A stretch of 16,555 nt of DNA. Source: Armatimonadota bacterium (GTDB lineage Bacteria > Armatimonadota > UBA10988). The stretch's first letter is position 1; each line of letters begins with the position of its first letter. Position numbers and translations under genes: made by a program. Positions 1 to 16,555 of the stretch are shown piece after piece. Location of the stretch: positions 1 through 16,555 of the forward strand of contig JACRKZ010000013.1 of NCBI GenBank assembly GCA_016235455.1, written 5' to 3'. The notes under the pieces are model-generated. The model saw only the letters and a program-made list of their open reading frames with translations. It had not been told where the DNA came from and ran no database searches.

Positions 1-38
1 AGCACAAGCGCCGACGACATAGCCAAAGCGATCCTCAT
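1..38 (-). CDS. 5' end of a probable exported protein (runs off the left edge)
   Basis: ATG at 38-36 with AGGAG (50-46) 7 nt upstream. Reads MRIALAMSSALV.., a basic residue then a hydrophobic stretch, like a signal peptide. Not in the ORF track. Confidence 0.55.
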   Translation of the reverse strand, partial: MRIALAMSSALV

Positions 39-197
39 GGGACGACTCCTCTCGCTTCATCAGCCAGTGTGCTCGTCCGACCGCCTGAGGGTCAAGCGAG
101 GCACAGGGAATCGATACCATATGTCGTCTGGACGATTGTTGAGCGCAAGTTGGGCCCGGTGGCGGAACGTGGGGTCGCAACCCGTCCGGGCTCGCGA

Positions 198-338
198 TCA
201 CAGGTCGTCCTCGCTCCATCCCGTGCCGTCATGGAGCGCATCGCCGGCAAAGCGCTGGAAGGTCATGAAGCCTATACCGCGGTTGGTCAGCACGTCGGCG
301 GTCGGCGCGGGGCGGACGACGGCGGGTTCGGCGGGCAT
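198..338 (-). pseudogene. 46-aa ORF, probably a truncated N-terminal fragment of a DUF4832-type/glycoside-hydrolase-like protein
   Basis: GGAG (349-346) then ATG 338. Reads MPAEPAVVRPAPTADVLTNRGIGFMTFQRFAGDALHDGTGWSEDDL*. From memory this resembles the N-terminal 'NPGIGFxTFQRFxGD...W' segment of much longer DUF4832-type proteins. Confidence 0.5.
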
Positions 339-521
339 GGCGGGGCTCCGTGCCGGCGGCTACGGCCTGCGCGGCGGGAGTCCTTCGTGGTGGGCGGTAC
401 GATGGCGGTGCGGCGCAGTCTGGTGTCAGTAGAGGGGCGCGTCGCCTGCGACCCCTTCGACCCGAGTCAGGCGCTCTGCCTGGCCGTTCCACCCTGAGTC
501 CGCTCTTTGCCGAACGGCGCA

Positions 522-1178
522 CTAGCCGGTGCAGTCGAGCATGAGGTGCGTCAGCGTGATGGCACCAAGCCCTCCCTGCCGCTCGTGGGTCGAGGTGTAG
601 AGGTCGCCTCTGCCGCCGCCCACGTCAACGAGCCGGTCGGCAGCGCCCAGGACCGAGCTGTTGCCCTGGATGGCAGCGTTGATGGCGCCCGCCTGCTGAT
701 CGATAGGCCCATCCTGCACATAGCCGAGCATGCCGGCGCGGTCCACGTTCTGGCTGTAGCCGCCGGTGACGAATCGCATCATGCCCTCGGCCATGTACTT
801 CTGCGGCGAACCGAGTCGCTTCGCCTCCCATGCCAGGTACAGCCCCCCAATCCGGCGAGTCTGCGGGACTGTGAACACCAAGTCTTTGCGCCTCGACGCC
901 GCTGCGCCTCTGAGCGTCTGCGCGGTGACCTCGGGCACCTCCAGATCGACCTGCACCCCATTCTCGGAGTGGACGCAGATGTCCTCGGCCCGCACTGCGA
1001 TGTTCTGGGTGAGGCTCTCCTCAACAAGCGCCTGCAGAGCTGCTGGCGGATTGGCTCTCAGGCGGAGGTGAGCTTGCCGGATGACGTCAACGCAGAGCTC
1101 GACGAACGCAATCGAGAGCGACCATGGAGGCCCAGCTTCGTGTTCTGCCGCGATCGCCATCGGCCCCACCACCGTCAC
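522..1178 (-). CDS. Putative PD-(D/E)xK-fold nuclease (218 aa), partner of the methyltransferase
   Basis: GTG at 1178 overlaps the upstream TGA (GTGA overlap) and is in frame with ORF 522..1193. Motifs: helix EESLT, RKDLVF (D at 882-884), 18 aa, WEAKRL (EAK at 819-827), then YMAEGMMRFVTGGYS and AGMLGYV. Confidence 0.7.
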   Translation of the reverse strand: MTVVGPMAIAAEHEAGPPWSLSIAFVELCVDVIRQAHLRLRANPPAALQALVEESLTQNIAVRAEDICVHSENGVQVDLEVPEVTAQTLRGAAASRRKDLVFTVPQTRRIGGLYLAWEAKRLGSPQKYMAEGMMRFVTGGYSQNVDRAGMLGYVQDGPIDQQAGAINAAIQGNSSVLGAADRLVDVGGGRGDLYTSTHERQGGLGAITLTHLMLDCTG

Positions 1179-4100
1179 CCCTGACTGACCCACGAGGCCA
1201 TCGCCTCGGTCGCATCGCTGATCGCCGACCCGACGGTCCAGTAACGGGACCTAGAGGGGCGGATCACGTACAACACCTCGCCCGCATACAGGTCTACGTG
1301 GCGACGGTAGTAGACGCTCGGGTCCGAACGAGCCACGACGAGGTCGTCTAGCTGATTCAGCAGCTGCGCCGTCTCAGCATCGTGCTCGGAGACCCGAATG
1401 CGTCCCTCTGTTGAGCGGACCCGGTGGAAGGCTACGACGCTCAGCGCGGCACTGCCACTGAGGTGGACGGTGGCATCGAGGGCCATCCCAGCGTGCTTCA
1501 GCAAGGGCTGGGTGGCGGCTACGAACTGCTTGGCGTACCTCTCCATCAGTTCGCGCGACGGCGGCTCGATGGCCGGCGTCCGCCAGCGGCTCCGCCTCTC
1601 GCTGTCGCCCCAGTGGAACAGCGGGATGACGTACTCCTCTGTCTCCCTGACCAGCGCCTGCTCCCGCTCGGTCAACTTGTACGCCTGCATTACCATCGCG
1701 TCGATCTGCTCATGCCTGCTGCTCATTTGCCCATGGAGCGAGGTCAGATCAGCATTGCCGGCCGCCACGGCCTGTTCGCGCGCAGCAAGTAGTTCCAGTT
1801 CCTGGACCCAGCCCACAACTGCCCTGTGGTCGGCCGAGTTGGCATCGAACGGCGCAATGGGCATGGCAAGCAGGTCGCGACTCTTCAACGCAGCAAAGCT
1901 CGTCGACCGCGGACAGCGATGGAACAGCCAGTACGCCGCCACAGGCGAACTGTAAATCGCCGCAATCCAGCGCATTAGCTCCACGTCGATCTCCACACCG
2001 GGAATCCCTGTGAAGCTGTCGCGATATACCAGGCCCCGGCCGAAGAGGGCCGCTCGGTGCCGCCACGGGCTCCCAGGCAAGTACGCGATGGGTCTGGGGC
2101 TGTGACTCAGCAGCACCACTGGGCCCCCATGGGACACCCGCTTGTTGCTGCGCTCGTTCCAAGTGCTCGGTTCCAGCCGCTCGCCGTCAACACATTCGGT
2201 GTGCCAGGCCCGGAAATCGGTCGATCTCATGCCGCACGGGGATGGCGGCGGGACCTTGCGTGCGTCAGGCGCGTCCTGCCTCTGGCTGGTCTTGGCGCCT
2301 TCGCCCACATCCCAGGCCTGCGGATGGCGGGCGCACTGCGTGCCGTCTTGGAGCACCTCGCCGCGCCGCCTCTCCGCCACCTGCTTGAGGCTGCGCAGAT
2401 CGGGTCGGCGCAGAATGCGCCGCATCAGCTGCATATCAGCGCCAGTGCCCCAACGGGCCATCGACCATATACCAGGGTCCTCGGCGTACCGCTTCGGCTG
2501 GATCCAGCAGACATCGCTGGGTGAGATGACCGGGACCGCCTGATGTCGGAACTCCAAGTCCACTTTCGGCGCGGCGTGGAGCACCGGAGTGCGCCCATCG
2601 GGCTGCCCAGGCCGCACGAAGAACGCCGCGATGGGGCTCGCTACGCCCGGGTTCAGCGTCCGACGGAGGCTCGTGAGATTGGCTACCGCACGCAACCTGT
2701 GACGATCGAGCAGTTGCTCCCTGAACTCGCTGTCGTGAGCCAGGAGGCAGGGCTCTGCCGGTTGGAGCATGGCCACTTCGCCATCCGCAGGCTGGCACAG
2801 CTCCAGCGCGCGGGCCATGAAGAACGGCGCCGCCTGCTTCTGCGGCAGGTCCCATCCACGACTGGTCGCCCAGCGTGTCATCTCCTTTGACGCCGTGCTC
2901 TCGCCCCACGGTGGATTGCCGATGACACGGTCAAACACCTGGCCATTGAGCAGGCGCGCCACCTCCTCACTCTCGAAACGCCCCTCATAGAGGACCGTCG
3001 GGTCAGGCCCCTCCCCGAGCAGCGACGGGAACCTAAAGCGCGGGTCAGCAAGCACCTCGTCGTCAAGGTACTCCAGCATGGTCACATACACACTGAACGC
3101 GGTGATGTGAAGCGCGGATCGGTCCTTGTCCACGCCGCGCAGCGAGCCATACAGGATGGACCGCATTGCCTCGTCAGTCGGCTGCCGCTGGTGCTCATCG
3201 CACCATGCCGCCAGAAGCCGGCCGAGCGCTCTCACCACGAACGCTCCCGACCCACATGCTGGGTCCAGAACACGCCAATCCGACCTGCACTCACCCCGCG
3301 GCATGGTCTCGCGCAGCACGAAGTCAACAAGGGGAAGCGTCGTGTAGTACGAGCCGCTGTCCTTCTTTGCCTTCTTGTCCAAGAACGTGTCGTACAGACC
3401 GCTCATGAACCCGATGGGTAGGTACGAGAAGTCGAGCGGCCAGAGCAGGTATTGCTCGTAATCCCGGTCGACCAACTGCCGAAGCGCCGCAAGATGCAGC
3501 GGCGCAACCGCCGCCGCCTCATCGTCCTCGACCGGGAACATGCTGCCGTTGAACCGCTCGGCCAAGGCGTCGAAGAACGTGTAGACCTGGGAGACGGTCA
3601 GCCGCCCGGCTTCGACCTGCTCGATGGCTTCCTCGAATCGCTCGAAGCGGCCACCGCTCAGCGCCGCGACGAACCGTGGCGCTAGGCTGCCCCGGTCGCT
3701 CAGGTACCGAATGAACAGAGCTCGCGAGAGCAGGCGGAAGGCTAGGGCAAGGGTCAGGCCATGGCCCAGCAAAGCGTCACGACAGCTTCGGACGGCCCGC
3801 AGCAGTGTACTCGTAGCACGATTGTCCGCCCTGTAGTCCGCTTGTTCCCACAGACGGCCAGCGTCCACCGCCCTGCGGGCATACGGCTGCAACGCCCTCG
3901 GTGGTCCGCCCCTAGCCGTGAGCTCCGCTGCGACCAGTTCAGCTAGCGCCGCCCGAAAATGGCCAGGAGAGTCGTAGGGCGACTCGACTGCGTTGTAGAC
4001 CCTCACAATGTCTGGTCGCGCCACCACCAGCAACCGTGCTTGGCTCTGGCTGTACACGGCCCGGCGCAGCTGTGCCTCCTGGCCGTCGTCCTCGGCGGCG

Positions 4101-4261
4101 CCGAAATAGACCGTAGGCACCTCGCCAGGGGCATGGATGTGTCTCAGGTTGGCTATCTCTCGGCCATCCCAGACTGATGGCTTGATCAGGCCCGTGGCAG
4201 GCGCGTACCCGAGCTGCTTGGCAGCCAGGTCGCAGATCTCGGTTGCACTGATTCGACCCAT
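1175..4261 (-). CDS. N-6 DNA methylase family (gamma-class amino-MTase), Type IIG/Eco57I-like architecture with TRD, 1028 aa
   Basis: Motif X SGSYYTT, motif I VLDPACGSGAF, GVDKD and motif IV VIGNPPW (2906-2917) in gamma order. TRD-like C-terminal part (IAAIYSSPVAAYWLF, LLAMPI, IDAMVMQAYKLTERE) followed by about 140 aa of extra C-terminal domain. Confidence 0.92.
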   Translation of the reverse strand: MGRISATEICDLAAKQLGYAPATGLIKPSVWDGREIANLRHIHAPGEVPTVYFGAAEDDGQEAQLRRAVYSQSQARLLVVARPDIVRVYNAVESPYDSPGHFRAALAELVAAELTARGGPPRALQPYARRAVDAGRLWEQADYRADNRATSTLLRAVRSCRDALLGHGLTLALAFRLLSRALFIRYLSDRGSLAPRFVAALSGGRFERFEEAIEQVEAGRLTVSQVYTFFDALAERFNGSMFPVEDDEAAAVAPLHLAALRQLVDRDYEQYLLWPLDFSYLPIGFMSGLYDTFLDKKAKKDSGSYYTTLPLVDFVLRETMPRGECRSDWRVLDPACGSGAFVVRALGRLLAAWCDEHQRQPTDEAMRSILYGSLRGVDKDRSALHITAFSVYVTMLEYLDDEVLADPRFRFPSLLGEGPDPTVLYEGRFESEEVARLLNGQVFDRVIGNPPWGESTASKEMTRWATSRGWDLPQKQAAPFFMARALELCQPADGEVAMLQPAEPCLLAHDSEFREQLLDRHRLRAVANLTSLRRTLNPGVASPIAAFFVRPGQPDGRTPVLHAAPKVDLEFRHQAVPVISPSDVCWIQPKRYAEDPGIWSMARWGTGADMQLMRRILRRPDLRSLKQVAERRRGEVLQDGTQCARHPQAWDVGEGAKTSQRQDAPDARKVPPPSPCGMRSTDFRAWHTECVDGERLEPSTWNERSNKRVSHGGPVVLLSHSPRPIAYLPGSPWRHRAALFGRGLVYRDSFTGIPGVEIDVELMRWIAAIYSSPVAAYWLFHRCPRSTSFAALKSRDLLAMPIAPFDANSADHRAVVGWVQELELLAAREQAVAAGNADLTSLHGQMSSRHEQIDAMVMQAYKLTEREQALVRETEEYVIPLFHWGDSERRSRWRTPAIEPPSRELMERYAKQFVAATQPLLKHAGMALDATVHLSGSAALSVVAFHRVRSTEGRIRVSEHDAETAQLLNQLDDLVVARSDPSVYYRRHVDLYAGEVLYVIRPSRSRYWTVGSAISDATEAMASWVSQG

Positions 4262-4270
4262 TGTACGCCC

Positions 4271-4279
4271 ATGCTAGCA
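4271..4279 (-). promoter_or_regulatory. Putative extended -10 promoter (TG-C-TAGCAT) of the methyltransferase
   Basis: Minus strand reads TGCTAGCAT, then 9 nt, then ATG. No Shine-Dalgarno, so a very short leader or leaderless transcript is plausible. Confidence 0.4.
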
Positions 4280-4368
4280 CAGCTAGCAGACCGTTCGCCA
4301 CCCCTCTTGACGCCACCTCCAGGCGCGAAGGTGAAACTCCTCTTCTCACACCTCGCCCCGCCACGCCA

Positions 4369-4532
4369 AGGCCGGCCCGGCTCACGCACCACCAGCTTGC
4401 GCCCGACCTGCGCCGACACCCGCGCCAGGAACCCCGCGTCACCGTGCGGCAGCCCGCCTTGAGTGCGAGCCCGCAGCGTCTTGGCCGCCCGTCGTCCAGC
4501 CACAGCGCCGACTGCTCGCGCCACGCCGCGGG
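4369..4532 (-). pseudogene. Probable C-terminal remnant of a REP-associated (IS200-like, HUH/Y1) tyrosine transposase
   Basis: Reads PAAWREQSALWLDD, frameshift, AAKTLRARTQGGLPHGDAGFLARVSAQVGRKLVVREPGRP. From memory this matches the typical RAYT tail 'LR..T..G.PLG...F...(L)GR......GRP'. No HUH catalytic part is visible. Confidence 0.45.
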
Positions 4533-4659
4533 TCAACAGTGACGCTCCCCGTTCGCTGGTCCCAGCTAACTCGAGCGGACGGGTCTCGTGCTACCCCAGC
4601 CCCGAATCTGCGCTCGCCGGCCGGCCGCCAAGCCACCCACGCCGCCCGACATCTCAAAC

Positions 4660-7600
4660 TCACCGCCGCGCCGCAAACCGATACCGCCCCGCCTCCACCG
4701 CCACCACCGCGACCCCCAGCCGCCGCTCGCCCTCGGTCACGCTGGCTGGGTCGCTGGTCGGCACGTAGACCGTCGCGCTCGTGCTCGGCGGGATGGTGAT
4801 GTCCATCGTCAGCCGGCCGGCGTCGAGGCGCCAGGCCGAGCGGATGCGGCCATACGGCGAGTCATACCAGGCGTCCACCCAGCGCATGTCGCCGGCCGGC
4901 TGGGGGCGGATGATGATGCGGCGGTAGCCGGGTCCGCTGGGGTCGGGTCGGATGCCGGCCAGGGCTTCGAACTGCCAGGCGGCCACGTTGCCGCCCAGCG
5001 ATGGCATCAGCGCCATGCCGCCGGCCCAGGTCTCCTTGAGCAGGTCGTTGCCGCTGCCGCGCGTCATCGACCACCACGAGGGGAAGTCGCGCGCCGAGGC
5101 CATGGCCCAGGCGGTCTCGGGCGACAGGTCACGCAGCACCGGCAGCAGGTACGGCCCGCTGACGAAGCCCGTGGACAGGTGCTGACGGTGCGCGGCGCAC
5201 TCGCGCAGCAGCGCCGCCTCGACCCGCGCGCGCTGCTCGGGCGGCACCATGCCCAGCGCCAGCGGCAGCACCTGCCCGGCCTGGGTGCACGGCCGGTCGC
5301 CGGTCCACCAGACCTCGTGGCTGGCCGATAGCGGCACCGGCGGCTGCCAGTTGCCCGAGCGCGGCTGCCAGCCCGGCTGACCGTAGATGCCCGTGGCCGG
5401 GTCGAGGTAGCGCGCGTTGAAGGCCGCGCGCACCTGCTCGGCCAGGTCGGTGTAGCGCCTGGCGTCGGCCGGCTTGCCCAGCATCTCGGCCGCCTGCGAC
5501 ACGATGCGAGCAAAGAGGTAGTGCGCGGGTGTGTTGATGATCGGCCGCGGCGTCTCCTCCACCGGCAACCAGTCGAGCAGGCCCCAGTCCTGTCCGGCGG
5601 GCGTGGCCACGCGGGTCAGGTAGTCGACATAGCGCGCCATGGCCGGGTAGCTGGTCTCCAGCAGCGAGCGGTCGCCGCGCAGCAGGTACCATTGCCAGGG
5701 CAGCCAGACCGCACACCCACCCCACCACGGGCTGTTGTAGTCGTCGAAGAACGGGCCGGGCGCGATGTTGGGGAAGTTGCCGTCGGCGGCCTGGCCGTCG
5801 AGCATGTCCTGCTGCCAGCGCTCATAGAGGCCGGGCGAATCGAACAGGTAGTGCGATGACCAGAACATGGTCTCGATGTCCTGCACCCAGCCCTTCCACT
5901 CGCGCACCGGGTCGGCGGGCAGCCAGGTGGTATACGCCACGGCCGTGCGGCGCACGCAGTCGTTGAGCCAGTTCTGCCATTCGTCCGAGCAGCGGAACGC
6001 GCCTGCCGGGCTGCCCAGCGAGCTGATCTGCTGGACGGTCAAGTCGCCTGGCTCCGGCGGCGCGAGCAGGCCGCTGACCTCCACGCGGCACATGCCCGCA
6101 TAGACGAAGCGCGGCTGGTAGGTCTCCTTGGAGCCGGTGCCGGCCAGGATGAAGCGGCTGGTGCGCGGGCGCGGCTCGGTGGGCAGCGTGGTGATGTGGA
6201 TCTCGGTGCCGGGCGGTCCGGCCGCGCGCAGGCGCACGAACCCGCTCACCTCGCGGCCCAGGTTCCAGGTGGCCGTGTGCCGCGCCGCGTCCCAGGTGGG
6301 TGCCGGCGGGGTGATGGTCTCGACGACGCGCGTGAATGGCTCGCGCTGCGCGGCCATCTGGCCGGTCGGTGGCGCGAGTTGGGCCACGGGCCGCCAGCGC
6401 CGCGCGGTGCGGCGCGCATCGACATCCTCCAGCGGGATCCAACTGCGCGTGATCTCGCCCTCGGACCACAGCCACGCGCCGTCGGAGCCGATCACCGTCT
6501 CCGTGCCGTCGGCATGACGCAGGTGCAAGTCCAGCCGCAGCTTGGGCTGGTCGATGTACGGCTTGTCTTCGAAATGGTGCACCCACGGGTCGCGTTCCAG
6601 GCCATACCAGCCGTCGACCAGCGTCACGTCCAGCGTCCTGGCGCCGGGCGCGACAAAGCGGTCGGTGACGTCGAAGGTCAGGTACGGCACGCGCTTGTTG
6701 TACGTGACGAAGCCCGGCCCGGTGAGGTAGTCGCCCACTCTCCGGCCGTCGATGGCCAGCTCGGAGTAGCCCAGACCGCTGAAGCAGACCACCGCCTGGG
6801 TCACCGGCTTGACCGGCTGGACCACGCGCCGCAGGTAGAGGGCGCCGTGCGGGTTGTCGAGCCTCTCGCGCTGTTCTCCGGCCGGCGCCAGAGCCTTGCC
6901 GTCCACCAGTTGCGCCTTGCCCCAGCCGTAGCCTTCGACGCTGCTGCTGGCCGTCACCGGCCGACCGAGGGCGATGTTGCGGCCGCCGGAGAAGACCTCC
7001 AGCTCGCCCAGCGTGTAGACGAACGGCAGGTCCGGCCCGCGCTTCCAGAGCCGCGTGACGGTCAGCTTCACGGTGCGCGCGCGCTGGCCCTTGGCGTCAA
7101 TGAGCACCGGCCGCCAGCCGGGGTTGGGCACGTCGGCGGCGGTCTGGTCGGCCAGGGTCACGCCATCGGCCTCGACGCGGAAGCGCAGCGGGAAGCCATA
7201 GCCGTCGGTCCAGCCGCCGGCCGCGGGGTCGTTGTGGCGCATGGGATGCAGCACCACGCGGTCCAGCGGCAGCACCTCGCCCAGGTCGATGCTGACCCAC
7301 TGCGCCTCGTCGGCGGCCTTGGCCTCGACAGCGATGCCCAGCGTCGGATCGACCGCCTGCCGCGCTACGCTCGCGCCGATCCACTCGCCGTGCCAGTCCT
7401 CGGGCCGCAGCTTGCCGGTGACGAACGTGGCCGGCTCGCTCCAGGCCGTGGCCTGGCCGGCCCGGTCCCAGAGGCGCACGCGCCAGGTGTAGCGGGTCAC
7501 CGAGGCCAGCGCCGGCCCGCCATAGGGCACGAATGGCGCGGGCTCGGCGGTCTGGCGGCCGCTGTCCCAGACCAGCTCGGCGCCGCGTTTGACCACCACC

Positions 7601-7767
7601 TGCCAGGCCGTCTGGCGCTCGCCGCGGGCCGCTGAGTTCATGCGCCAACTCAGCCTCGGCCGCGCGGCGTCGATGCCGGCGGGCGCGATGCGGCCCTCGC
7701 AGCGCAGACCGTCGACGCTCGCCGACGGGCCGGCCAGCAGCACGCAGGTCAGCCACAGCAGATGCAT
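4660..7767 (-). CDS. Secreted GH78 family (alpha-L-rhamnosidase-like) glycoside hydrolase with an inserted F5/8-type-C (discoidin) module
   Basis: Signal peptide. N-terminal PRLSW..QTAWQVVV..VWDSG..YTWRVRLWD and SGLGYSELAIDG. Barrel segment DPVREWKGWVQD. C-terminal LAGIRPDPSGPGYRRIIIRPQ..SPYGRIRSAW. GGAGG SD upstream. Confidence 0.9.
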   Translation of the reverse strand: MHLLWLTCVLLAGPSASVDGLRCEGRIAPAGIDAARPRLSWRMNSAARGERQTAWQVVVKRGAELVWDSGRQTAEPAPFVPYGGPALASVTRYTWRVRLWDRAGQATAWSEPATFVTGKLRPEDWHGEWIGASVARQAVDPTLGIAVEAKAADEAQWVSIDLGEVLPLDRVVLHPMRHNDPAAGGWTDGYGFPLRFRVEADGVTLADQTAADVPNPGWRPVLIDAKGQRARTVKLTVTRLWKRGPDLPFVYTLGELEVFSGGRNIALGRPVTASSSVEGYGWGKAQLVDGKALAPAGEQRERLDNPHGALYLRRVVQPVKPVTQAVVCFSGLGYSELAIDGRRVGDYLTGPGFVTYNKRVPYLTFDVTDRFVAPGARTLDVTLVDGWYGLERDPWVHHFEDKPYIDQPKLRLDLHLRHADGTETVIGSDGAWLWSEGEITRSWIPLEDVDARRTARRWRPVAQLAPPTGQMAAQREPFTRVVETITPPAPTWDAARHTATWNLGREVSGFVRLRAAGPPGTEIHITTLPTEPRPRTSRFILAGTGSKETYQPRFVYAGMCRVEVSGLLAPPEPGDLTVQQISSLGSPAGAFRCSDEWQNWLNDCVRRTAVAYTTWLPADPVREWKGWVQDIETMFWSSHYLFDSPGLYERWQQDMLDGQAADGNFPNIAPGPFFDDYNSPWWGGCAVWLPWQWYLLRGDRSLLETSYPAMARYVDYLTRVATPAGQDWGLLDWLPVEETPRPIINTPAHYLFARIVSQAAEMLGKPADARRYTDLAEQVRAAFNARYLDPATGIYGQPGWQPRSGNWQPPVPLSASHEVWWTGDRPCTQAGQVLPLALGMVPPEQRARVEAALLRECAAHRQHLSTGFVSGPYLLPVLRDLSPETAWAMASARDFPSWWSMTRGSGNDLLKETWAGGMALMPSLGGNVAAWQFEALAGIRPDPSGPGYRRIIIRPQPAGDMRWVDAWYDSPYGRIRSAWRLDAGRLTMDITIPPSTSATVYVPTSDPASVTEGERRLGVAVVAVEAGRYRFAARR

Positions 7768-7809
7768 GGTCCATGCCTCCCCGAACCGAGGGCCAAAGGC
7801 CCGGCGTTC

Positions 7810-9330
7810 TCACCTCATACTGGGCGCCTGTTGAGCCAGTTCCGGCGGCAGTGGCGCCGGGGCGGCATGGCGGCTACGCGCGGCGCGGCCCAGTTGCCCA
7901 GCGCTCGCGCGGACGGGCTGGGTCACGAACTCGGGCACGTTGTAGCTGTGCCAGAACATGTCATAGTAGTCCGCGCGGCTCTGGGGCAGCAGCAGCGGCG
8001 GGTGGAGCCGGCCGTCAGTGTCGAAGTAGCTCAGGTAGAGCTTGGTGAACAGCCCATCGGCGCGCTTGCTGGCGAAAACCACCCAGCGGCCGTTGCTCGA
8101 CCACGAGTGCCAGGTGTCGGCGCGGTCGCTGTTGATCGGCACCGGTTGAGCCTGCCCGCTACGCAGGTCGATCAGGCCGAGGTCGCTGTTGGGCCGGTGG
8201 ATGGGGAAGCATCCGTAGTCGCACGCCGTGTAGAGCAGCCAGCGCCCGTCAGGCGAGACGCGCGGGAAGACGTAGCTGCGCTTGGCCGTCTCCCCCGAGA
8301 GCAGCACCTCGGCCTTGCCCCACGCGCCATTGCAGGGGTCGTAGGCGATGCGCATCAGGTTGTAGCGCACCTGATCGTAGCCGGGCGGCGGGATCAGCTC
8401 GCCGCCCGGCCAGGTCCGACGGGCGCGCGCGAAGTACAACGTCTTGCCGTCGGGCGCCCAGCAGGGATAGGTGTACAGGTAGTCGGGCGCCGACAGCTCC
8501 GGCGTCGTGCTGAACGAGCGCGTGCCGGCGTCGAACACGGTCAGCCCCGAGCTCAGGTCGAAGACGTCGCGCGTCTCCTCGCCGGCGGCATGAAAGAACT
8601 GGCGTACCTGGTTGGACGAGTACACGGCGATCCGGCCGTCCGGGTGCCAGGAGCCGTAGCCGATTGGCTGCTTGAGCGGCACGACGGACCTGCCGTTGAC
8701 CAGCAGTGTGCGCCCGCCGAAGGTCGAGCTACGCACGCCGAGCGTGAATCGCTGGCCCGAGCCTTGCCAGAAGGAGTGGCAGTTCACGCAGCCACCGGTC
8801 TGGCGGCCGCGCATGACGACCCGCTCGCGATAGCCGGTGAGGTCGCGCTCGTAGATGCCGACATCGCGTGCCAGGTTGTAGAGGGGGGTGAGCAGCCGGT
8901 AGACAAGGTAGCGGTCGACCGGCTCGGCGGCGACACTCAAGTCCACCGGCGCATACCGCGTCCAGGTCCCGCCCCGGCGCACATAGACGGTCAGCGTCAG
9001 CTTCGCTCCGCGGTTGGTCGCCAGCAGCCGCTGCCACAGCCGGGGTGCAAAGCGCAGATCCTGTCGCCGGCCCGACGCGGCCACCTGGCCGCGGGCGCCG
9101 CGCAAGGTCACGTACCAGGCCGTGCCGGGCTCGTTGACGCGCAGGCCCGGCGCGGCGATGTTCGGCGCCAGCACCACCCCCTCGAGCGCCGGCATGAGCC
9201 GAGGCGCCTGGCCCAGTTCGGTCACGGGGCCGCTCGGCCGCGGGCCTGGGCGCATCGAGATCAGCACCAGCACGATGGCCACCACGCTAGGCCACACGCC
9301 GCGCGTCAACAGGCCACGCAGTCTGTTCAT
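7810..9330 (-). CDS. TolB-like (PD40 repeat) beta-propeller protein with N-terminal membrane anchor/signal and a single CxxCH motif
   Basis: Repeats YGSWHPDGR, YPCWAPDGK, FPRVSPDGR and WHSWSSNGR. GGCVNCHSF with CxxCH at 8776-8790. C-terminal SYNVPEF. ATG overlaps the upstream TGA (ATGA, 9327-9330). Confidence 0.85.
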   Translation of the reverse strand: MNRLRGLLTRGVWPSVVAIVLVLISMRPGPRPSGPVTELGQAPRLMPALEGVVLAPNIAAPGLRVNEPGTAWYVTLRGARGQVAASGRRQDLRFAPRLWQRLLATNRGAKLTLTVYVRRGGTWTRYAPVDLSVAAEPVDRYLVYRLLTPLYNLARDVGIYERDLTGYRERVVMRGRQTGGCVNCHSFWQGSGQRFTLGVRSSTFGGRTLLVNGRSVVPLKQPIGYGSWHPDGRIAVYSSNQVRQFFHAAGEETRDVFDLSSGLTVFDAGTRSFSTTPELSAPDYLYTYPCWAPDGKTLYFARARRTWPGGELIPPPGYDQVRYNLMRIAYDPCNGAWGKAEVLLSGETAKRSYVFPRVSPDGRWLLYTACDYGCFPIHRPNSDLGLIDLRSGQAQPVPINSDRADTWHSWSSNGRWVVFASKRADGLFTKLYLSYFDTDGRLHPPLLLPQSRADYYDMFWHSYNVPEFVTQPVRASAGQLGRAARSRHAAPAPLPPELAQQAPSMR

Positions 9331-11183
9331 CGCGCCACTCCTGCCATGCCGAACATGCGGTAGTAGTAGTACGTGTCGGACCAGGGGCTGCCCAGCACCT
9401 TGGCTGCGGCGCGCGGCGGCCGGCGCGGGGTGCGCAGGTAGTCCACCATACCGTCACGCCCGCAGCCGAGCGCGCGGATGTAGTCGTCGAACCGACTGCG
9501 CGTCTCCCCGCGGATAGTCCAACGCCCCAGGGGCACGGGTCGGCCGGTGAGCACTTCCTGACACAGCAGCGCCTCCTCGATGTGCCGCGGCAGCGTGTCG
9601 CGCGCGGGGTCCGGCAAGGTGGGCAGCGCGGCCACGAGCCGGTCGAGCTGGTTGTCGAGCAGGTACAGCGCCAGCAGATACTCCTGGGCCAGGCGATGCC
9701 CGGGGTGCTCGCTCGTCACCTGCTCCAGCAGCGGCATGAGCCGTTGCTCGTAGTACACGTCGCCCTGCATGCGGTTGCGCTCCAGGCCCGCCTGCACGGG
9801 GTCGGAGGCCAGTCGCGGGTCGGCCGTCAGCGCGCGCAGCAGCGGCGCCGCGCCGGCCGGGTCGCCCGGCTGCGCCGCGGCCAGGCGCAGCAGCACGCGC
9901 GCCGCCTCGGGCCTGCCCTTCATGATCTGCACCCGCGCCATGGGCACCAGCAGCGCCGGGTATGTGCCTTGGGTTTCGAGCGTCTCGTGCAGCTCGTGCT
10001 CGGCCTCGTTGACCAGGCCGAGCTCGAGCGAGACCGCGCGCAGCATCACGCCGTGCTGGGTGCGCATGCGGCGCACGACCTCGCCGCCGCCCAGGCGCGG
10101 ATCGTCGCGCAAGATGCTCGTCGTCGGCAGGCCAAACTCGAACAGCCGCTCGCCCACCTGTCCGGTGTGCGCCAGCGCCAGCAGCACGTGGTAGTCGTCG
10201 AACTGGATCAGCTCCTGCGGCGCCAACTGCTTGGCTGCGGCCAGCAGGCCGGTCCAGTCGCGCCGGGCGGCCAGTTGGCCCAGTTGCATGCGCACGCAGT
10301 CGACGCGGTCCCGGCCCACCGCGAACATGAGCGCGATGGTCACCACCGGCGCCAGCCAGGCCAGCGCCGGCCGCGGCGCGCGCGGCTGCGCCGGCCGCAC
10401 CGCGACGGCGCCCACCAGCACGCCAAAGGCGATCATGCCCAGCGCGGCGGAGCGCACCACACCGTACTGGTCAATGCCCACCGCGCGGGGCAGCAGCGCC
10501 TCGTAGACCTGCGCCAACGGATGGTCGAAGGCGGCTCGCTGGGCCAACGCCGGCAGCCACAGCGGCGAGGTGGCCAGCGCGCCAGCCAGCAGTCGCGTCT
10601 CGCGGCGCCGGCCCTCGCCGAACGCCGCCAGCGGCACCGCGATCAGCGCCGGGCCGCCGAGCACGTAGTAGACCAGCCCCGCCGCCGGCAGCAGTACCGC
10701 GGCCCGCACCGCCGGACGCGACTCGCTCCAGGACAGCTCGGCCGACACGGCGAACAGCGCCGCGGCCCAGCCGATCTGCCAGTCGAGCAGATGCATGTAG
10801 TGGCCGTCGAGCAACAGGCAGAGCAGGAAGGGCGCGTAGCGCAGGCCGGGCAGTCGCCGTCCGGCCAGGCTTGACGCGGCGCGGTCGACACCGGCCGCCA
10901 CGGCCAACGCGCTGGCCAGCAGCAGCGTCGTGGCCGCCGCCGACCAGTGCCAGAGCTGCGAAAGCCATTCGCTGGCCTGCTGCAGCGGCCCGCCGATGAC
11001 CGACCAATTGGCGCGCGCGAACATGGCGTCGGGCCCGAACGACGGCAGTGCCGACAGGCTGGGATTGTCATAGGCGCGGCTCGGGTCGACCCAACGCCAC
11101 AGCCACACCCAGGCCACGACCCCGCAGATGGCCAGCCGCGCATCGCCCTGCCAACGCTTACCCCAGTCGGCTCCGCCACTCAT
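9327..11183 (-). CDS. DUF6057-like multi-pass membrane protein with C-terminal TPR-like helical domain
   Basis: Many hydrophobic segments in the first ~290 aa. Then RRDW, LLALAHTG..ERLF, AQEYLLALYLLD, LPRHIEEALL and DTYYYY, which I recall from DUF6057 proteins. The adjacency to a CxxCH-TolB gene also fits. Confidence 0.75.
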   Translation of the reverse strand: MSGGADWGKRWQGDARLAICGVVAWVWLWRWVDPSRAYDNPSLSALPSFGPDAMFARANWSVIGGPLQQASEWLSQLWHWSAAATTLLLASALAVAAGVDRAASSLAGRRLPGLRYAPFLLCLLLDGHYMHLLDWQIGWAAALFAVSAELSWSESRPAVRAAVLLPAAGLVYYVLGGPALIAVPLAAFGEGRRRETRLLAGALATSPLWLPALAQRAAFDHPLAQVYEALLPRAVGIDQYGVVRSAALGMIAFGVLVGAVAVRPAQPRAPRPALAWLAPVVTIALMFAVGRDRVDCVRMQLGQLAARRDWTGLLAAAKQLAPQELIQFDDYHVLLALAHTGQVGERLFEFGLPTTSILRDDPRLGGGEVVRRMRTQHGVMLRAVSLELGLVNEAEHELHETLETQGTYPALLVPMARVQIMKGRPEAARVLLRLAAAQPGDPAGAAPLLRALTADPRLASDPVQAGLERNRMQGDVYYEQRLMPLLEQVTSEHPGHRLAQEYLLALYLLDNQLDRLVAALPTLPDPARDTLPRHIEEALLCQEVLTGRPVPLGRWTIRGETRSRFDDYIRALGCGRDGMVDYLRTPRRPPRAAAKVLGSPWSDTYYYYRMFGMAGVAR

Positions 11184-11316
11184 CCGATCAGCTCCGCGCG
11201 ACGATTCGACACACGGCGGCGAGCTCCTGCGGCCCCCAGCCGGTTCGTTGCGCCAACCTCAACCTGTCTGCCGGCTGGGGCCGAGACCACGAACGGGTGA
11301 TCTCGCGCCCCGGCTG

Positions 11317-11325
11317 TGGCACAAT
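11317..11325 (+). promoter_or_regulatory. Putative extended -10 (TG-G-CACAAT) for the deacetylase cluster
   Basis: Lies 28 nt upstream of ATG 11354 in the divergent intergenic region. GAGGTG SD at 11345-11350. Confidence 0.35.
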
Positions 11326-11353
11326 GCCGCGCACACTAAGACGCGAGGTGGCC

Positions 11354-12064
11354 ATGTCCGCGCTGCTCTGCCTGACCTACGATGATGCCCTGCCCGTACA
11401 CCGCGAGCTGGTGGCGCCGGCGCTGGCCGCGCGTGGCCTGCGTGGCACGTTCTACGCGCCCGCCGCCGCGGGCGACCTGCACCAGGCGGTCGACGCCTGG
11501 CGCGCCGTGGCCGCCGCGGGCCACGAACTGGGCAACCACACCTGCTGGCATCCCTGCCGCCTGCGGCCGGGCTCGGCGTATGTGCCGGCCTATCAGCTCC
11601 AGGACTACACCCACCGCCGCATCCGCGACGAGCTGCGGCTGGCCAACCAGGTGTTGACGCTGGTCGACGGCCAGACCCAGCGCAGCTACGCCGCCACCTG
11701 CCACGACACGACCATCGGGCCAGACCCCGGCGCGTCGTTCTTCGCGGAGATGGCCGAACTGTTCCCCATCGTTCGCGCCGGCCACGCCCAGGCACCCTCG
11801 GCCGGGCCGATGCCGTTCATCACGCCAGCGTTCTCCGCCGACCGCCGCAGTGCCGCGGAGGTCATCGCCGCCGCCGAGCAGATGCGCGGCGTGGCCGACG
11901 CCTGGCTGGTGGTGCTCATGCACGGCGTGGGCGAAGGCACGCACAACCACCACATGGCCGCCGAGGAGCATGCCCGGCTGATCGACTGGCTGGCCGAGCA
12001 GAGCGGGTGGCTGGCCGGCGTGACGCTGTGCGAGGCGGCGCGCCGGCGGGGTGTGCAGGCTTGA
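11354..12064 (+). CDS. Polysaccharide deacetylase (CE4/NodB family), 236 aa
   Basis: Motif 1 LTYDD, motif 2 GHELGNHTCWH, late motif VLMHGV. SD GAGGTG before ATG 11354. No signal peptide. Confidence 0.88.
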   Translation: MSALLCLTYDDALPVHRELVAPALAARGLRGTFYAPAAAGDLHQAVDAWRAVAAAGHELGNHTCWHPCRLRPGSAYVPAYQLQDYTHRRIRDELRLANQVLTLVDGQTQRSYAATCHDTTIGPDPGASFFAEMAELFPIVRAGHAQAPSAGPMPFITPAFSADRRSAAEVIAAAEQMRGVADAWLVVLMHGVGEGTHNHHMAAEEHARLIDWLAEQSGWLAGVTLCEAARRRGVQA

Positions 12065-12140: not shown

Positions 12141-12950
12141 ATGAGTCGTGTCTTTCGATGTCTGCTTGTGACGCTGGCCGTGGCCGGCGCGGCCCCGGCC
12201 CAGGACCCGCCGGTGATGACCGGCACACCCGCCGGCCAACTGCTGGTCGGTGGCAGTGGTCACCTGATGATCCTCTCGCCCGCGGGCGAGATCGTCTGGG
12301 AGCACAAGACCGGGCTGGTGCATGACGCCTGGATGCTGCCCAATGGCAACATCCTCTATGCTGACGGCGGTGTGACCGAAGTGACCCGTGACCATCAGGT
12401 GGTCCTGTCGTGGACCTCGCAGGTGGCCGGCGGCGGCGGTGCCTACGGCTGCCAGCGACTGGCCAACGGCAACACGATGGTCGCCGAGAACTCGCGCAGC
12501 CGCATCATCGAGATCGACCCGCAGGGCAAGGAAGTCTTCGCGCTCGACGTGCCGCCGGGCAAGCAGGGCGACCACAACAACCTGCGCCTGGCGCGCAAGC
12601 TGCGCAATGGCAACTACCTGGTCTGCCACAAGGGCAGCAGCTACGTGGGCGAATGGACGCCCGACGGCAAGAAGGTGCGCGAGCTGAAGTTCGACAACAA
12701 CACCTTCTCCGCCTTCGAGACGCCCAAGGGCACGATCATCGTCTCCAGCCTGACCAAGTTGACCGAGTTCGACGCCGACGGCAAGGTGCTCTGGGAGTTC
12801 CGGAACTCGGACATCCCCGGCCTGTTCGAGATCACGCGCGACAAGCAACTCGTGTGGCGCTACGCCAAGCCCAAGGCAGACGGCTCGCTGATGGCTGTGC
12901 AGCTTCTCAGCCCCGACGGCAAGCTGCTGCCGGGCGGCGACGTGCGCTGA
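12141..12950 (+). CDS. Secreted beta-propeller repeat protein (PQQ-like/arylsulfotransferase-like blades), 269 aa
   Basis: GGAG at 12128-12131. Signal peptide MSRVFRCLLVTLAVAGAAPA. Repeated 'LxNGNxxV...xEx(T/D)xxGKxVW' blades. Confidence 0.8.
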   Translation: MSRVFRCLLVTLAVAGAAPAQDPPVMTGTPAGQLLVGGSGHLMILSPAGEIVWEHKTGLVHDAWMLPNGNILYADGGVTEVTRDHQVVLSWTSQVAGGGGAYGCQRLANGNTMVAENSRSRIIEIDPQGKEVFALDVPPGKQGDHNNLRLARKLRNGNYLVCHKGSSYVGEWTPDGKKVRELKFDNNTFSAFETPKGTIIVSSLTKLTEFDADGKVLWEFRNSDIPGLFEITRDKQLVWRYAKPKADGSLMAVQLLSPDGKLLPGGDVR

Positions 12951-13978
12951 TGAACGCGCGCGAGCGGTTCGTCGCGGCGCTGGACTATGACCAGCCCGAC
13001 CGCCTGCCGGTGGTCTACCACCCCTGCACGGCCGGGCTGTACGTCCACGGTCAGCCCTTGGCCGACCTGCTCACCGCGCATCCGCCGGACAACCCGATCA
13101 GCTTCGAGCACCTGCCCGGGCCGCCGGCCGAGGCGGTCGACGCGCAGGGCCGGTACCACGAGTTCCGCGTCGATGGCTGGGGCGCCGAGTGGGAGTACCT
13201 CATCTTCGGCGTTGCCGGCCATCCGTCGCGCTACCCGGTCACCAACTGGGCCCAGTCCGACAGTTACCAACTGCCAGCGGTGCCCGCGTGCTCCGGGCCG
13301 GAGTTCGAGGCCGCGCGCGCCTGGCTCGACGAGCAGAAGCGCTCGTGGTTCCTGTCCGGCGGCGGCATCTCGCTGTTCGAGCGCCTGCACGCGATCTCGC
13401 CGCTGGAGGACCTGCTCCTGGCCATCGGCCTGAGTGAGCCTGGCCTGCTGGCCTTCCTCGAGCGGCTCGAGGTCTACTGGCACGCCTGCCTCGACCGTGA
13501 CCTGGCGTTGGGCCACGACGCCATCTGGTTCGGCGACGACTGGGGCACGCAGACGGGTCCGATCATCTCGCCAGCCGCGTTCGACCGCCTCTTCGCGCCG
13601 ATCTATGCGCGGCTGTTCGCGCGGGTGAAGGCGGCCGGCGCGCGGGTCTTCTTCCACTCGTGCGGCGCGCAAGGCCCCATTTTCGACCGTCTGCTGGAAC
13701 TGGGCATCGACCTGATCTGGCCTCAGATCGGCTGGTTCGAAGCCGATCCCGCGCGCATTGAGGCCTGCCGCGACCGCGGCGTGGCGTTCTACGTCCATCC
13801 CGACCGGCAACGGCTGGTGCCGCTGGGCAGGCCCGACGAGATCCGCGCCGAGATGCGCCGTTACGGCGAACTCGGCCGGCGCCTGGGCGGCGGCGTGGTG
13901 TTCTACGTGGAGATCGAGAACGACGCGCCGTGGGCCAACGCGATGGCCTTGGTGGAGGGCATCAGCGCGGCGCGGTGA
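12950..13978 (+). CDS. Uroporphyrinogen decarboxylase superfamily protein (URO-D/MtaA/CmuA-like), 342 aa
   Basis: ATG overlaps the upstream TGA (TGATG). Motifs MNARERF..ALDYDQPDRLP, DGWGAEW, FGDDWGTQTGPIISP, FFHSCG, LLELGID, LPLG-like 'VPLGRPDEIRAE' and GGGVVF. Not a HemE orthologue. Confidence 0.88.
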   Translation: MNARERFVAALDYDQPDRLPVVYHPCTAGLYVHGQPLADLLTAHPPDNPISFEHLPGPPAEAVDAQGRYHEFRVDGWGAEWEYLIFGVAGHPSRYPVTNWAQSDSYQLPAVPACSGPEFEAARAWLDEQKRSWFLSGGGISLFERLHAISPLEDLLLAIGLSEPGLLAFLERLEVYWHACLDRDLALGHDAIWFGDDWGTQTGPIISPAAFDRLFAPIYARLFARVKAAGARVFFHSCGAQGPIFDRLLELGIDLIWPQIGWFEADPARIEACRDRGVAFYVHPDRQRLVPLGRPDEIRAEMRRYGELGRRLGGGVVFYVEIENDAPWANAMALVEGISAAR

Positions 13979-14035: not shown

Positions 14036-14764
<729 letters not shown>

Positions 14765-15665: not shown

Positions 15666-16555
15666 ATGTCGCACCAACCTATCGTCACCGAATCCATCCT
15701 CGATCTCATCGGCAACACGCCGCTGGTCCATCTGCCGGGCGAGGCCGTGTGGGCCAAGGCCGAGTTCCTCAACCCCGGCGGCAGCATCAAGGACCGCATC
15801 GCGCTGGCCATGATCCAGGGCGCCGAGCGCCGCGGCCTGCTGCGGCCCGGCAGCATCCTGGTCGAGCCCACCTCGGGCAACACCGGCATCGGCGTGGCGC
15901 TGGTCGGGCGGCTGCGGGGCTACGAGGTACGCATCGTCATGCCCGAGGGCATGAGCGAGGAACGCAAGCGCATCATCCGTGCGCTGGGCGCCGAGCTCAT
16001 CCTCACACCCGACAGCGAGAGCATCGCTGGCGCGGTGAGCAAGGTGGCCGAGTTGGCCGCGGCGGACCCCAACGTCTATGTGCCGCAGCAGTTTGAGAAC
16101 CCCGACAACCCCAACGCCCACTACACCGGCACCGCGCCCGAGATCTGGGCGCAGATGGCCGGCGATGTCGATTGCTTCGTGGCCGGCGTGGGCAGTGGTG
16201 GCACCTTGGCCGGCGTCGGCCGGTTCCTGCGCGAACACGCACCGCACGCGAAGATCATCGCCGTGGAGCCGCATGGCGTGTCGGCGCTGCTGGGCCATGA
16301 GCCGGGCCTGCATGCCATCCAGGGCATTGGCGACGGGTTCATCCCTGCCGTGCTTGATCCGGCGTTGGTGGACGACGTGATTGAGGTCACCGACGAGGAC
16401 GCCATCGCCACCACCCGCGGGCTCGGCCGCGAGCTGGGTCTGCGTGTAGGCACGTCGTCCGGCGCCAACGTCTGGGCCGCGCGCCAGGCGGCGGCGCGCG
16501 GCTGCAAGCGGGTCGTGACCATCCTGGCCGACCGCGCGGAGCGCTACTTCAGCAC
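15666..16555 (+). CDS. cysK: Cysteine synthase A (O-acetylserine sulfhydrylase, PLP-dependent), 3' end outside the window
   Basis: My translation; absent from the ORF track because there is no stop in the window. MSHQPIVTESILDLIGNTPLV..KAEFLNPGGSIKDRIA (PLP lysine), EPTSGNTGIG, QQFENPDN, GVGSGGT, HAIQGIGDGFIP, GTSSGAN, ERYFS. Confidence 0.93.
   Translation, partial: MSHQPIVTESILDLIGNTPLVHLPGEAVWAKAEFLNPGGSIKDRIALAMIQGAERRGLLRPGSILVEPTSGNTGIGVALVGRLRGYEVRIVMPEGMSEERKRIIRALGAELILTPDSESIAGAVSKVAELAAADPNVYVPQQFENPDNPNAHYTGTAPEIWAQMAGDVDCFVAGVGSGGTLAGVGRFLREHAPHAKIIAVEPHGVSALLGHEPGLHAIQGIGDGFIPAVLDPALVDDVIEVTDEDAIATTRGLGRELGLRVGTSSGANVWAARQAAARGCKRVVTILADRAERYFS

Follow-up and report, generated by a model that had tools for sequence, protein, structure and literature searches.

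Candidate split of a Type IIG-like restriction-modification system over two adjacent genes in an Armatimonadota contig

Is a gene that present tools read as a complete, single-gene Type IIG restriction enzyme in fact only one half of a two-subunit system? The question is raised by two adjacent genes on the minus strand of contig JACRKZ010000013.1 from an Armatimonadota bacterium (assembly GCA_016235455.1; genome 6.5 Mb, 69% GC), the entire 16,555 bp of which were analyzed and are referred to here as the window. The first gene encodes a large DNA methyltransferase (methylase), P0001, and the second a small protein, P0002, of an unannotated family. A first-pass annotation, made from the letters of this DNA and its open reading frames (ORFs), had proposed that the large chain recognizes a site and recruits the small one as a stand-alone nuclease, an arrangement that it could not match to a named system. 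Having followed the two families across genomes, we consider it probable that the pair is a split, ATP-independent, Type IIG-like two-subunit restriction-modification (R-M) system. The strongest result of the analysis is that the linkage of the two genes is near-obligate in both directions.

Linkage of the two genes

The pair is laid out as follows.

1175..4261, minus strand: large subunit gene, P0001, 1028 aa, with an N-terminal domain, a helical region, a gamma-class N6-adenine methyltransferase, a variable region and a conserved C-terminal domain
522..1193, minus strand: small subunit gene, P0002, up to 223 aa, a predicted PD-(D/E)xK nuclease of an unannotated family
1175..1178, minus strand: GTGA junction, at which a GTG that may start the small gene (1178-1176) overlaps the TGA of the large gene (1177-1175)

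The large gene ends in GGG-TGA, and the GTGA overlap by which the first-pass annotation had coupled the two genes is present as described, with the start itself ambiguous. A GTG at 1193 (223 aa) would give a 19-nt overlap with the large gene, the GTG at 1178 gives a protein of 218 aa, and an ATG at 1160 comes 14 nt after the methylase stop, behind the G-rich stretch GGTGGTGGGG; the 212-aa product of this last start, P0006, is the sole database form of the small protein. Whichever start holds, the two genes are tightly packed. The minus-strand small ORF is favored over an antisense ORF at 507-1184 (plus strand) because of its GC by codon position (0.695/0.465/0.808, against 0.805/0.473/0.699 for the antisense ORF).

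We scanned one genome per species for methylase relatives, which gave 80 loci from Chloroflexota, Cyanobacteria, Bacteroidota, Alpha-, Beta- and Gammaproteobacteria, Planctomycetota, Acidobacteriota, Desulfobacterota, Firmicutes, Verrucomicrobiota, Nitrospirota, Patescibacteria and others. At 79 of these loci a profile search found a small-family ORF immediately downstream on the same strand; at the exception, L061, the contig stops within the methylase gene. Starting from the small family, we found the C-terminal half of the methylase immediately upstream and in the same orientation at 28 of the 29 places with a small gene outside the window, and the small-family profile matched in 24 of the 401 sampled genomes of the window's phylum, the window's own genome counted. 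The co-occurrence of the two families, on which the first-pass proposal turned, is thereby borne out. One genome carries, besides an intact pair (L091), a decayed one whose genes both contain in-frame stops (L111, G388:C53, counted among the 28) and a broken or split small gene (L107, G388:C65), the one of the 29 without a methylase; this set looks like a sign of turnover and decay of such systems.

Viral contigs served as a control, in which 60 loci matched the methylase profile: nine with a full-family methylase and 51 with other large N6-methylases, some of them in other PADLOC Type IIG models. The small gene was present at seven of the nine and at none of the 51. One of the two full-family loci without it is on a contig that stops inside the methylase. 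At the other, L120, a transposase-like ORF (7023-7472, minus strand), which we take from its sequence to be IS630/Tc1-like, follows right after a full-length methylase at the expected small-gene site, where the contig stops; an insertion may have removed or displaced the nuclease gene.

The two genes also keep a short distance: 74 of the 76 scorable pairs fall within +/-30 nt, with overlaps of 4 nt in 30 pairs and of 1 nt in 11, although the distance was measured in each case from the methylase stop to the closest candidate start, a choice biased to short distances. The outliers are -88 and +583, the latter being L006 (8964-9536, Cylindrospermum sp. NIES-4074), with ~570 nt between the methylase and a shortened small ORF of 189 aa; this gap may reflect insertion or decay. 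No conserved third gene was found: flanking ORFs of at least 100 aa formed clusters covering no more than 6 of the 80 loci, and small ORFs (at least 45 aa, within 1.5 kb) clusters covering no more than 4 of 79.

Two candidate locations for the nuclease

That the large chain is a methyltransferase is indicated by its Pfam matches to N6_Mtase (5.7e-10) and Eco57I (2.2e-09), both above cut-offs, and by the intact amino-methyltransferase motifs already picked out in the first pass, with motif I ahead of motif IV as in gamma-class N6-adenine methyltransferases.

3239..3265, minus strand: S-adenosylmethionine-binding motif I, DPACGSGAF, residues 333-341; D333, P334, G337, S338, G339 and F341 invariant in 26 sequences
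2906..2917, minus strand: catalytic motif IV, NPPW, residues 449-452; G448, N449, P451 and W452 invariant in 26 sequences
1178..1696, minus strand: C-terminal domain, residues 856-1028; Y909, W1008, A1013 and D1016 invariant, R987, K1001 and P1002 nearly so

A word-based search returned 143 relatives at E<=0.001, the nearest 48% identical, and the closer ones are ~1000-1060 aa long with >90% of the query aligned. When a profile of 26 members was compared with solved structures, matches were confined to the methyltransferase domain (CamA, BseCI, Type I HsdM, MmeI, BsaXI, BrxX, DrdV, LlaGI and BpuSI), and no PDB sequence match was found to the rest of the chain, including the C-terminal domain. 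PADLOC places P0001 in two models named 'Type IIG restriction enzyme-methyltransferase' (REase_MTase_IIG), PDLC03603 (4.7e-39) and PDLC03623 (2.1e-35), and some relatives match Type IIG models along the whole length (P0063 at 1118 bits on PDLC03603; P0025 and P0016 at 308 bits). To present tools the locus would be a single-gene Type IIG enzyme, because these two models are built on the methylase family.

The PADLOC label and the end-to-end match of P0063 would suit a true single-chain Type IIG enzyme with a non-canonical nuclease at its N-terminus, in which the small protein would supply the catalytic site for the second strand, as in BspD6I, BtsI and BsrDI, or act as some other accessory. The region concerned is the following.

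3872..4261, minus strand: N-terminal domain, residues 1-130, with no conserved nuclease triad

We aligned 82 sequences of this domain, from P0001, its closest relative and the 80 genome loci, to the family profile. Only P49 (77/82), W70 (79/82) and N71 (60/82) are conserved, and there is no conserved acidic or lysine column among the 82 sequences. At plausible positions for a nuclease, 24 of the 82 members have D and 14 have K, which speaks for the single-chain explanation, as does the appearance of the BspD6I small subunit among the structural matches of the small protein; P0001, however, has neither residue, with H and G at these two columns. A profile of 39 N-terminal domains had no PDB match at E<=10, the same 39 members gave no credible Pfam match, and no profile similarity linked the N-terminal, helical or C-terminal domains of the methylase to the small family (hhalign probability <1%). 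Distant Type IIG proteins of ~950 aa from the same search list have HSDR_N nuclease domains (PF04313, PF13588). Judging from conserved residues and profile searches, the large chain appears to be without the same-chain nuclease that defines Type IIG enzymes, and we regard the single-chain explanation as decidedly unlikely.

The small protein itself matched no family in Pfam, NCBIfam or PADLOC. The first-pass annotation could not match the arrangement to a named system; the small protein indeed falls in no described family, and the large chain is covered by PADLOC's Type IIG models. Across 71 members of the small family, NCBIfam and PADLOC matched none, and Pfam gave two chance-level rows only, one member each. 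When 1.84 billion representatives were searched exhaustively with HMMER, 140 relatives besides the protein itself came up (E 2.3e-12 to 1e-3); a word-based search returned the protein alone. Family lengths are 99-271 aa, one spurious repeat protein aside, and none of the 140 relatives is a fused form of the nuclease. The apparent fusion P0154 (1020 aa) was rejected as a spurious match to a BNR/beta-propeller repeat protein. For the homolog P0126, all 30 nearest clusters in the ESM Atlas are called 'hypothetical protein' and have no Pfam family, and one structural neighbor there carries the automatic name 'putative Eco47II family restriction endonuclease'.

An alignment of the 71 members has a mean column identity of 22% and nine invariant positions (numbered as in P0006): E47, D93, E112, K114, Y122, G126, Y135, M144 and H205. 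Four of these make up the putative active site.

1020..1022, minus strand: E47, acidic and invariant, where helix 47-63 begins
882..884, minus strand: D93, invariant, in strand 90-97
819..827, minus strand: E112-A-K114, with E and K invariant, on strand 108-116

The D-x18-EAK motif read in the first pass is thus D93, E112 and K114. As far as this alignment goes, an E...D...ExK signature with D-x18-EAK as its core is beyond chance, because E47, D93, E112 and K114 are invariant despite the low mean identity.

The family profile had no PDB sequence match at E<=1. An AlphaFold2 model built with the 71-member alignment reached a predicted local distance difference test (pLDDT) score of 91.7 and a predicted template modeling (pTM) score of 0.87; a single-sequence model (pLDDT 30.1) was discarded. 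In the predicted fold the D93 strand is followed by the E112/K114 strand and then by a helix and a fourth strand. The weak top Foldseek rows for this model were NucC, McrC, PspGI and OkrAI, and VIA-align ranked the following structures highest (rmsd, root-mean-square deviation).

OkrAI: Z 8.4, 148 aligned residues, rmsd 4.0 A
BglII: Z 7.8, 133 aligned residues, rmsd 3.9 A
McrC: Z 7.6, 122 aligned residues, rmsd 3.6 A
BamHI: Z 7.5, 134 aligned residues, rmsd 4.0 A
BstYI: Z 6.9, 145 aligned residues, rmsd 4.4 A

Lower rows include Card1, Bse634I, Cfr10I, NgoMIV and SgrAI, together with nuclease domains from the N-termini of two Type IIG enzymes, DrdV (Z 5.8, residues 6-127) and BpuSI (Z 5.2), and the small subunit of the heterodimeric BspD6I (Z 5.1); the best 50 structural matches are mostly restriction endonucleases or related nucleases. 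Because three things come together, an invariant motif, the position of D and ExK on neighboring strands and a match list dominated by nucleases, we conclude from the model that the small protein has a restriction-endonuclease-like core of the alpha-beta-beta-beta-alpha-beta type and is a member of the PD-(D/E)xK superfamily by motif and predicted fold, so that the nuclease nature given to it in the first-pass annotation survives this examination.

Four of the best matches, OkrAI, BglII, BamHI and BstYI, are homodimeric Type IIP enzymes, and R and M genes are adjacent in classical systems as they are here. Both points would agree with an ordinary Type II pair, in which the small protein would be a self-sufficient, site-specific Type IIP homodimer and the large protein its unusually large cognate methyltransferase. 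To our knowledge, Type IIP enzymes of different specificities have little sequence in common, yet the small family is conserved over many phyla, always with one methylase family, and in this resembles a Res or HsdR subunit. In addition, the large chain has ~450 extra conserved residues in its N- and C-terminal domains, which a plain methylase would not need.

Recognition region and proposed division of labor

What further separates an ordinary Type II pair from a split system is where specificity appears to lie. The relevant parts of the large chain are these.

1697..2551, minus strand: variable region, presumed target recognition domain (TRD), residues 571-855, comprising the family's poorly conserved windows
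2183-2317, minus strand: hypervariable window of close methylase pairs, residues 649-693
1697-1855, minus strand: hypervariable window of close methylase pairs, residues 803-855

P0001 matches no named Pfam TRD family, and we infer the recognition role of the variable region from its hypervariable segments among relatives; family-wide, residues ~627-711 and 803-845 are gap-rich and among the least conserved. We compared eight pairs of loci whose methylases are 63-88% identical overall, in windows of 50 profile columns. Identity at window 649-693 is 24-48% in seven of the eight pairs, the other being L022/L044 at 79%. The steepest drop is that of L005/L018, with 24% at this window versus 58-90% in the other scorable windows; L007/L016 shows 33%. 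At window 803-855 three pairs have 26-42% identity, L022/L044 has 78%, and four pairs are too gapped for scoring. The partner small proteins of the same eight pairs are 50-89% identical, tracking overall divergence and not the variable segments. Since window 649-693 collapses while the small proteins stay at this level, specificity appears to shift in the large chain alone. This is the pattern of recognition-domain exchange familiar from Type I and Type IIG enzymes.

For an ordinary Type II pair the comparison is awkward: were the nuclease to read its own site, a changed methylase recognition region would leave sites unprotected. The fairly fast divergence of the small proteins (50% in L007/L016) fits a self-reading enzyme better, and on the whole we hold this explanation to be unlikely. 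Recognition-domain exchange in Type IIG enzymes is described in PMC2853133.

Distances between small proteins correlate with those between the methylase domains (r 0.75-0.83; 2701 pairs from 75 systems, which are not independent, with five loci dropped for frameshifted, partial or duplicate genes). Given the methyltransferase domain, the partial correlation is highest for the N-terminal domain (0.47) and 0.22-0.38 for the others, a weak lead as to the part of the large chain that may contact the nuclease.

A split system would then work as follows. The large chain would recognize its site through the variable region and methylate adenine there. The small chain, produced by translational coupling, would be a stand-alone PD-(D/E)xK nuclease, with a core like that of BamHI and BglII and lacking specificity itself. 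It would be bound by the large chain and thus brought to unmethylated sites, probably through the conserved, non-catalytic N-terminal domain; we favor this domain as the dock because in single-chain relatives the nuclease occupies that position. Unmethylated DNA would be cut at or near the site, without ATP and presumably only with the large chain in place, and the pair would serve in defense.

Several observations weigh against this split-system explanation. Foldseek found no PDB match for the small-protein model at E<=1e-3 (best 1.3e-2), and the VIA-align scores are middling, a best Z of 7-8 being typical of models that lack a clear match. Besides the D and K residues noted above in some N-terminal domains, P0001 carries the family residue at only one of the three conserved positions there (Y70 replaces W and S71 replaces N), and the domain could hold a non-canonical nuclease or have an unusual or degenerate fold. 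The small proteins of L007/L016 are less alike than the methylases, which are 70% identical; the nuclease is thus apparently not slow-evolving and could hold some of the specificity. The pair also lies only 521 nt from the contig end, and the window shows just that much of its downstream context. Finally, a characterized member of the system may exist.

A further explanation is that the pair has no part in defense and joins an epigenetic or orphan methylase to a nuclease for repair, recombination or mobility of a carrier element. Its occurrence on a conjugative plasmid and in viral contigs would be in keeping with this, and so would the GC content at third codon positions (GC3), which is 0.785 in the large gene and 0.808 in the small one (0.79-0.81) against 0.90-0.935 in the three upstream genes (0.90-0.94) and is consistent with horizontal acquisition of the pair. 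A methylase, a nuclease and a hypervariable recognition region together, however, are the signature of R-M; other R-M genes adjoin the pair at 4 of the 80 loci, and no integrase or transposase is conserved with it at these loci. We judge a non-defense role highly improbable.

The plasmid in question is p5 of Sagittula sp. MA-2 (NZ_CP126150.1), a conjugative MOBP/MPF_T plasmid on which the pair (L081, 2670-6396) has a 20-nt overlap and is annotated in RefSeq as 'N-6 DNA methylase' and 'hypothetical protein'. The four loci with other R-M genes are defense-island-like settings (L002 9800-12793, L056 1899-5312, L076 9770-13309 and L047 9578-11920), in three of which the pair adjoins an unrelated PADLOC 'Type IIG' gene and in one a Type I methyltransferase.

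The remainder of the window holds the following genes.

4660-11183, minus strand: co-directional upstream trio of a GH78 alpha-L-rhamnosidase (1035 aa), a PD40-repeat protein (506 aa) and a DUF6057/TPR membrane protein (618 aa), none defense-related by Pfam
11048-12064, plus strand: polysaccharide deacetylase-like ORF
12410-13978, plus strand: URO-D-like ORF
14036-14764, minus strand: protein with a prepilin-type N-methylation motif and DUF1559
15666-16553, plus strand: pyridoxal phosphate (PLP)-dependent enzyme, extending past the contig end

The 521 nt between the small gene and the contig end contain no credible gene. An Arg-rich 97-aa ORF at 229-522 (minus strand), whose GTG overlaps the small-gene TAG by 1 nt, was tried as a possible third gene and rejected; its GC3 (0.59) is lower than both its GC1 and its GC2, and no related ORF was found beside other pairs. 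Scans gave no promoter-like or terminator-like sites in 1-4800, no tRNA in the window, and no telling repeats flanking the pair.

Relation to known systems and significance

Among known systems, the large chain is closest in outline to the Type IIG/IIL enzymes MmeI, DrdV, BpuSI and Eco57I, sharing a chain of ~1000 aa, a gamma-class N6-adenine methyltransferase with DPACGSG and NPPW, a variable region presumed to serve recognition and the lack of an ATPase; profile matches within the methyltransferase domain reach 4.2e-12 for MmeI, 1.7e-10 for DrdV and 3.9e-05 for BpuSI. The cutting module, too, is of the PD-(D/E)xK kind, and the small protein superposes on the nuclease domains of DrdV and BpuSI. 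Here, however, the predicted nuclease is a separate polypeptide of 212-223 aa encoded downstream, and no catalytic residues are conserved in the N-terminal domain of the large chain.

In Type III systems such as EcoP15I Mod/Res, one subunit methylates and recognizes, and the second carries a PD-(D/E)xK nuclease targeted through the first. The division into a methyltransferase/recognition chain and a separate PD-(D/E)xK chain is shared, but Res has ~950 aa and a superfamily 2 (SF2) helicase/ATPase, whereas the partner here has ~220 aa and appears to be a nuclease domain alone. The small protein has no Pfam ATPase match; in agreement with the first-pass reading of the window, no ATPase or helicase gene is conserved next to the pair across the 80 loci, and the same holds for separate HsdS and HsdR genes of the kind found in Type I systems. 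Heterodimeric Type IIS enzymes (BspD6I, BtsI, BsrDI) have a small catalytic subunit that needs a large, site-recognizing one. The BspD6I small subunit resembles the small protein structurally, as noted, but the large subunit in these enzymes is a nicking endonuclease and methylation is left to separate enzymes. Type IIB enzymes (BcgI, BsaXI) likewise consist of two polypeptides, are ATP-independent and have a gamma-class methyltransferase (BsaXI match 2.8e-11), but are split as RM + S, whereas the split here would be M(+S) + R. The PglX/BrxX protein of BREX is also a large N6-adenine methyltransferase with distant similarity to P0001, both to NCBIfam models and to BrxX structures. The PglX models, however, match at 1.7e-12 to 5.2e-07, or 28-46 bits against cut-offs of 400-900, and no PglZ, BrxC or BrxL is conserved nearby at the 80 loci. 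All in all, the closest working counterpart of the system would be a Type IIG enzyme divided between two genes, or a Type III system whose Res has lost its helicase.

No description of such a split was found in the full-text literature, a search that did not extend to REBASE or to the supplements of papers, and the available parts of PMC12707154 and PMC2853133 contain no account of a methylase/nuclease split. We rate as new the organization of R-M subunits, which appears to have gone unrecognized, and the unannotated nuclease family; restriction-modification itself and the Type IIG label of the large chain are known.

On a bolder formulation we are evenly divided: that a methyltransferase-recognition scaffold licenses a specificity-free, BamHI-fold nuclease in trans by way of a dedicated, non-catalytic N-terminal dock, that this constitutes an unrecognized class of ATP-independent R-M enzymes, and that the PDLC03603 and PDLC03623 families are in fact two-subunit enzymes, present in ~6% of the genomes of one phylum and in >12 phyla. 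If the split is real, widespread genes now catalogued as complete single-gene Type IIG enzymes are incomplete, their cutting subunit being a 'hypothetical protein' for which there is no model, and a two-gene rule would become possible for defense-system finders. R-M classification would gain a helicase-free M(+S)/R split between Type IIG and Type III. Such a system would also amount to a natural, generic nuclease module steered by a swappable recognition chain, which is of interest for engineering, and it would bear on the origin of Type IIG enzymes by fusion, or of this family by fission.

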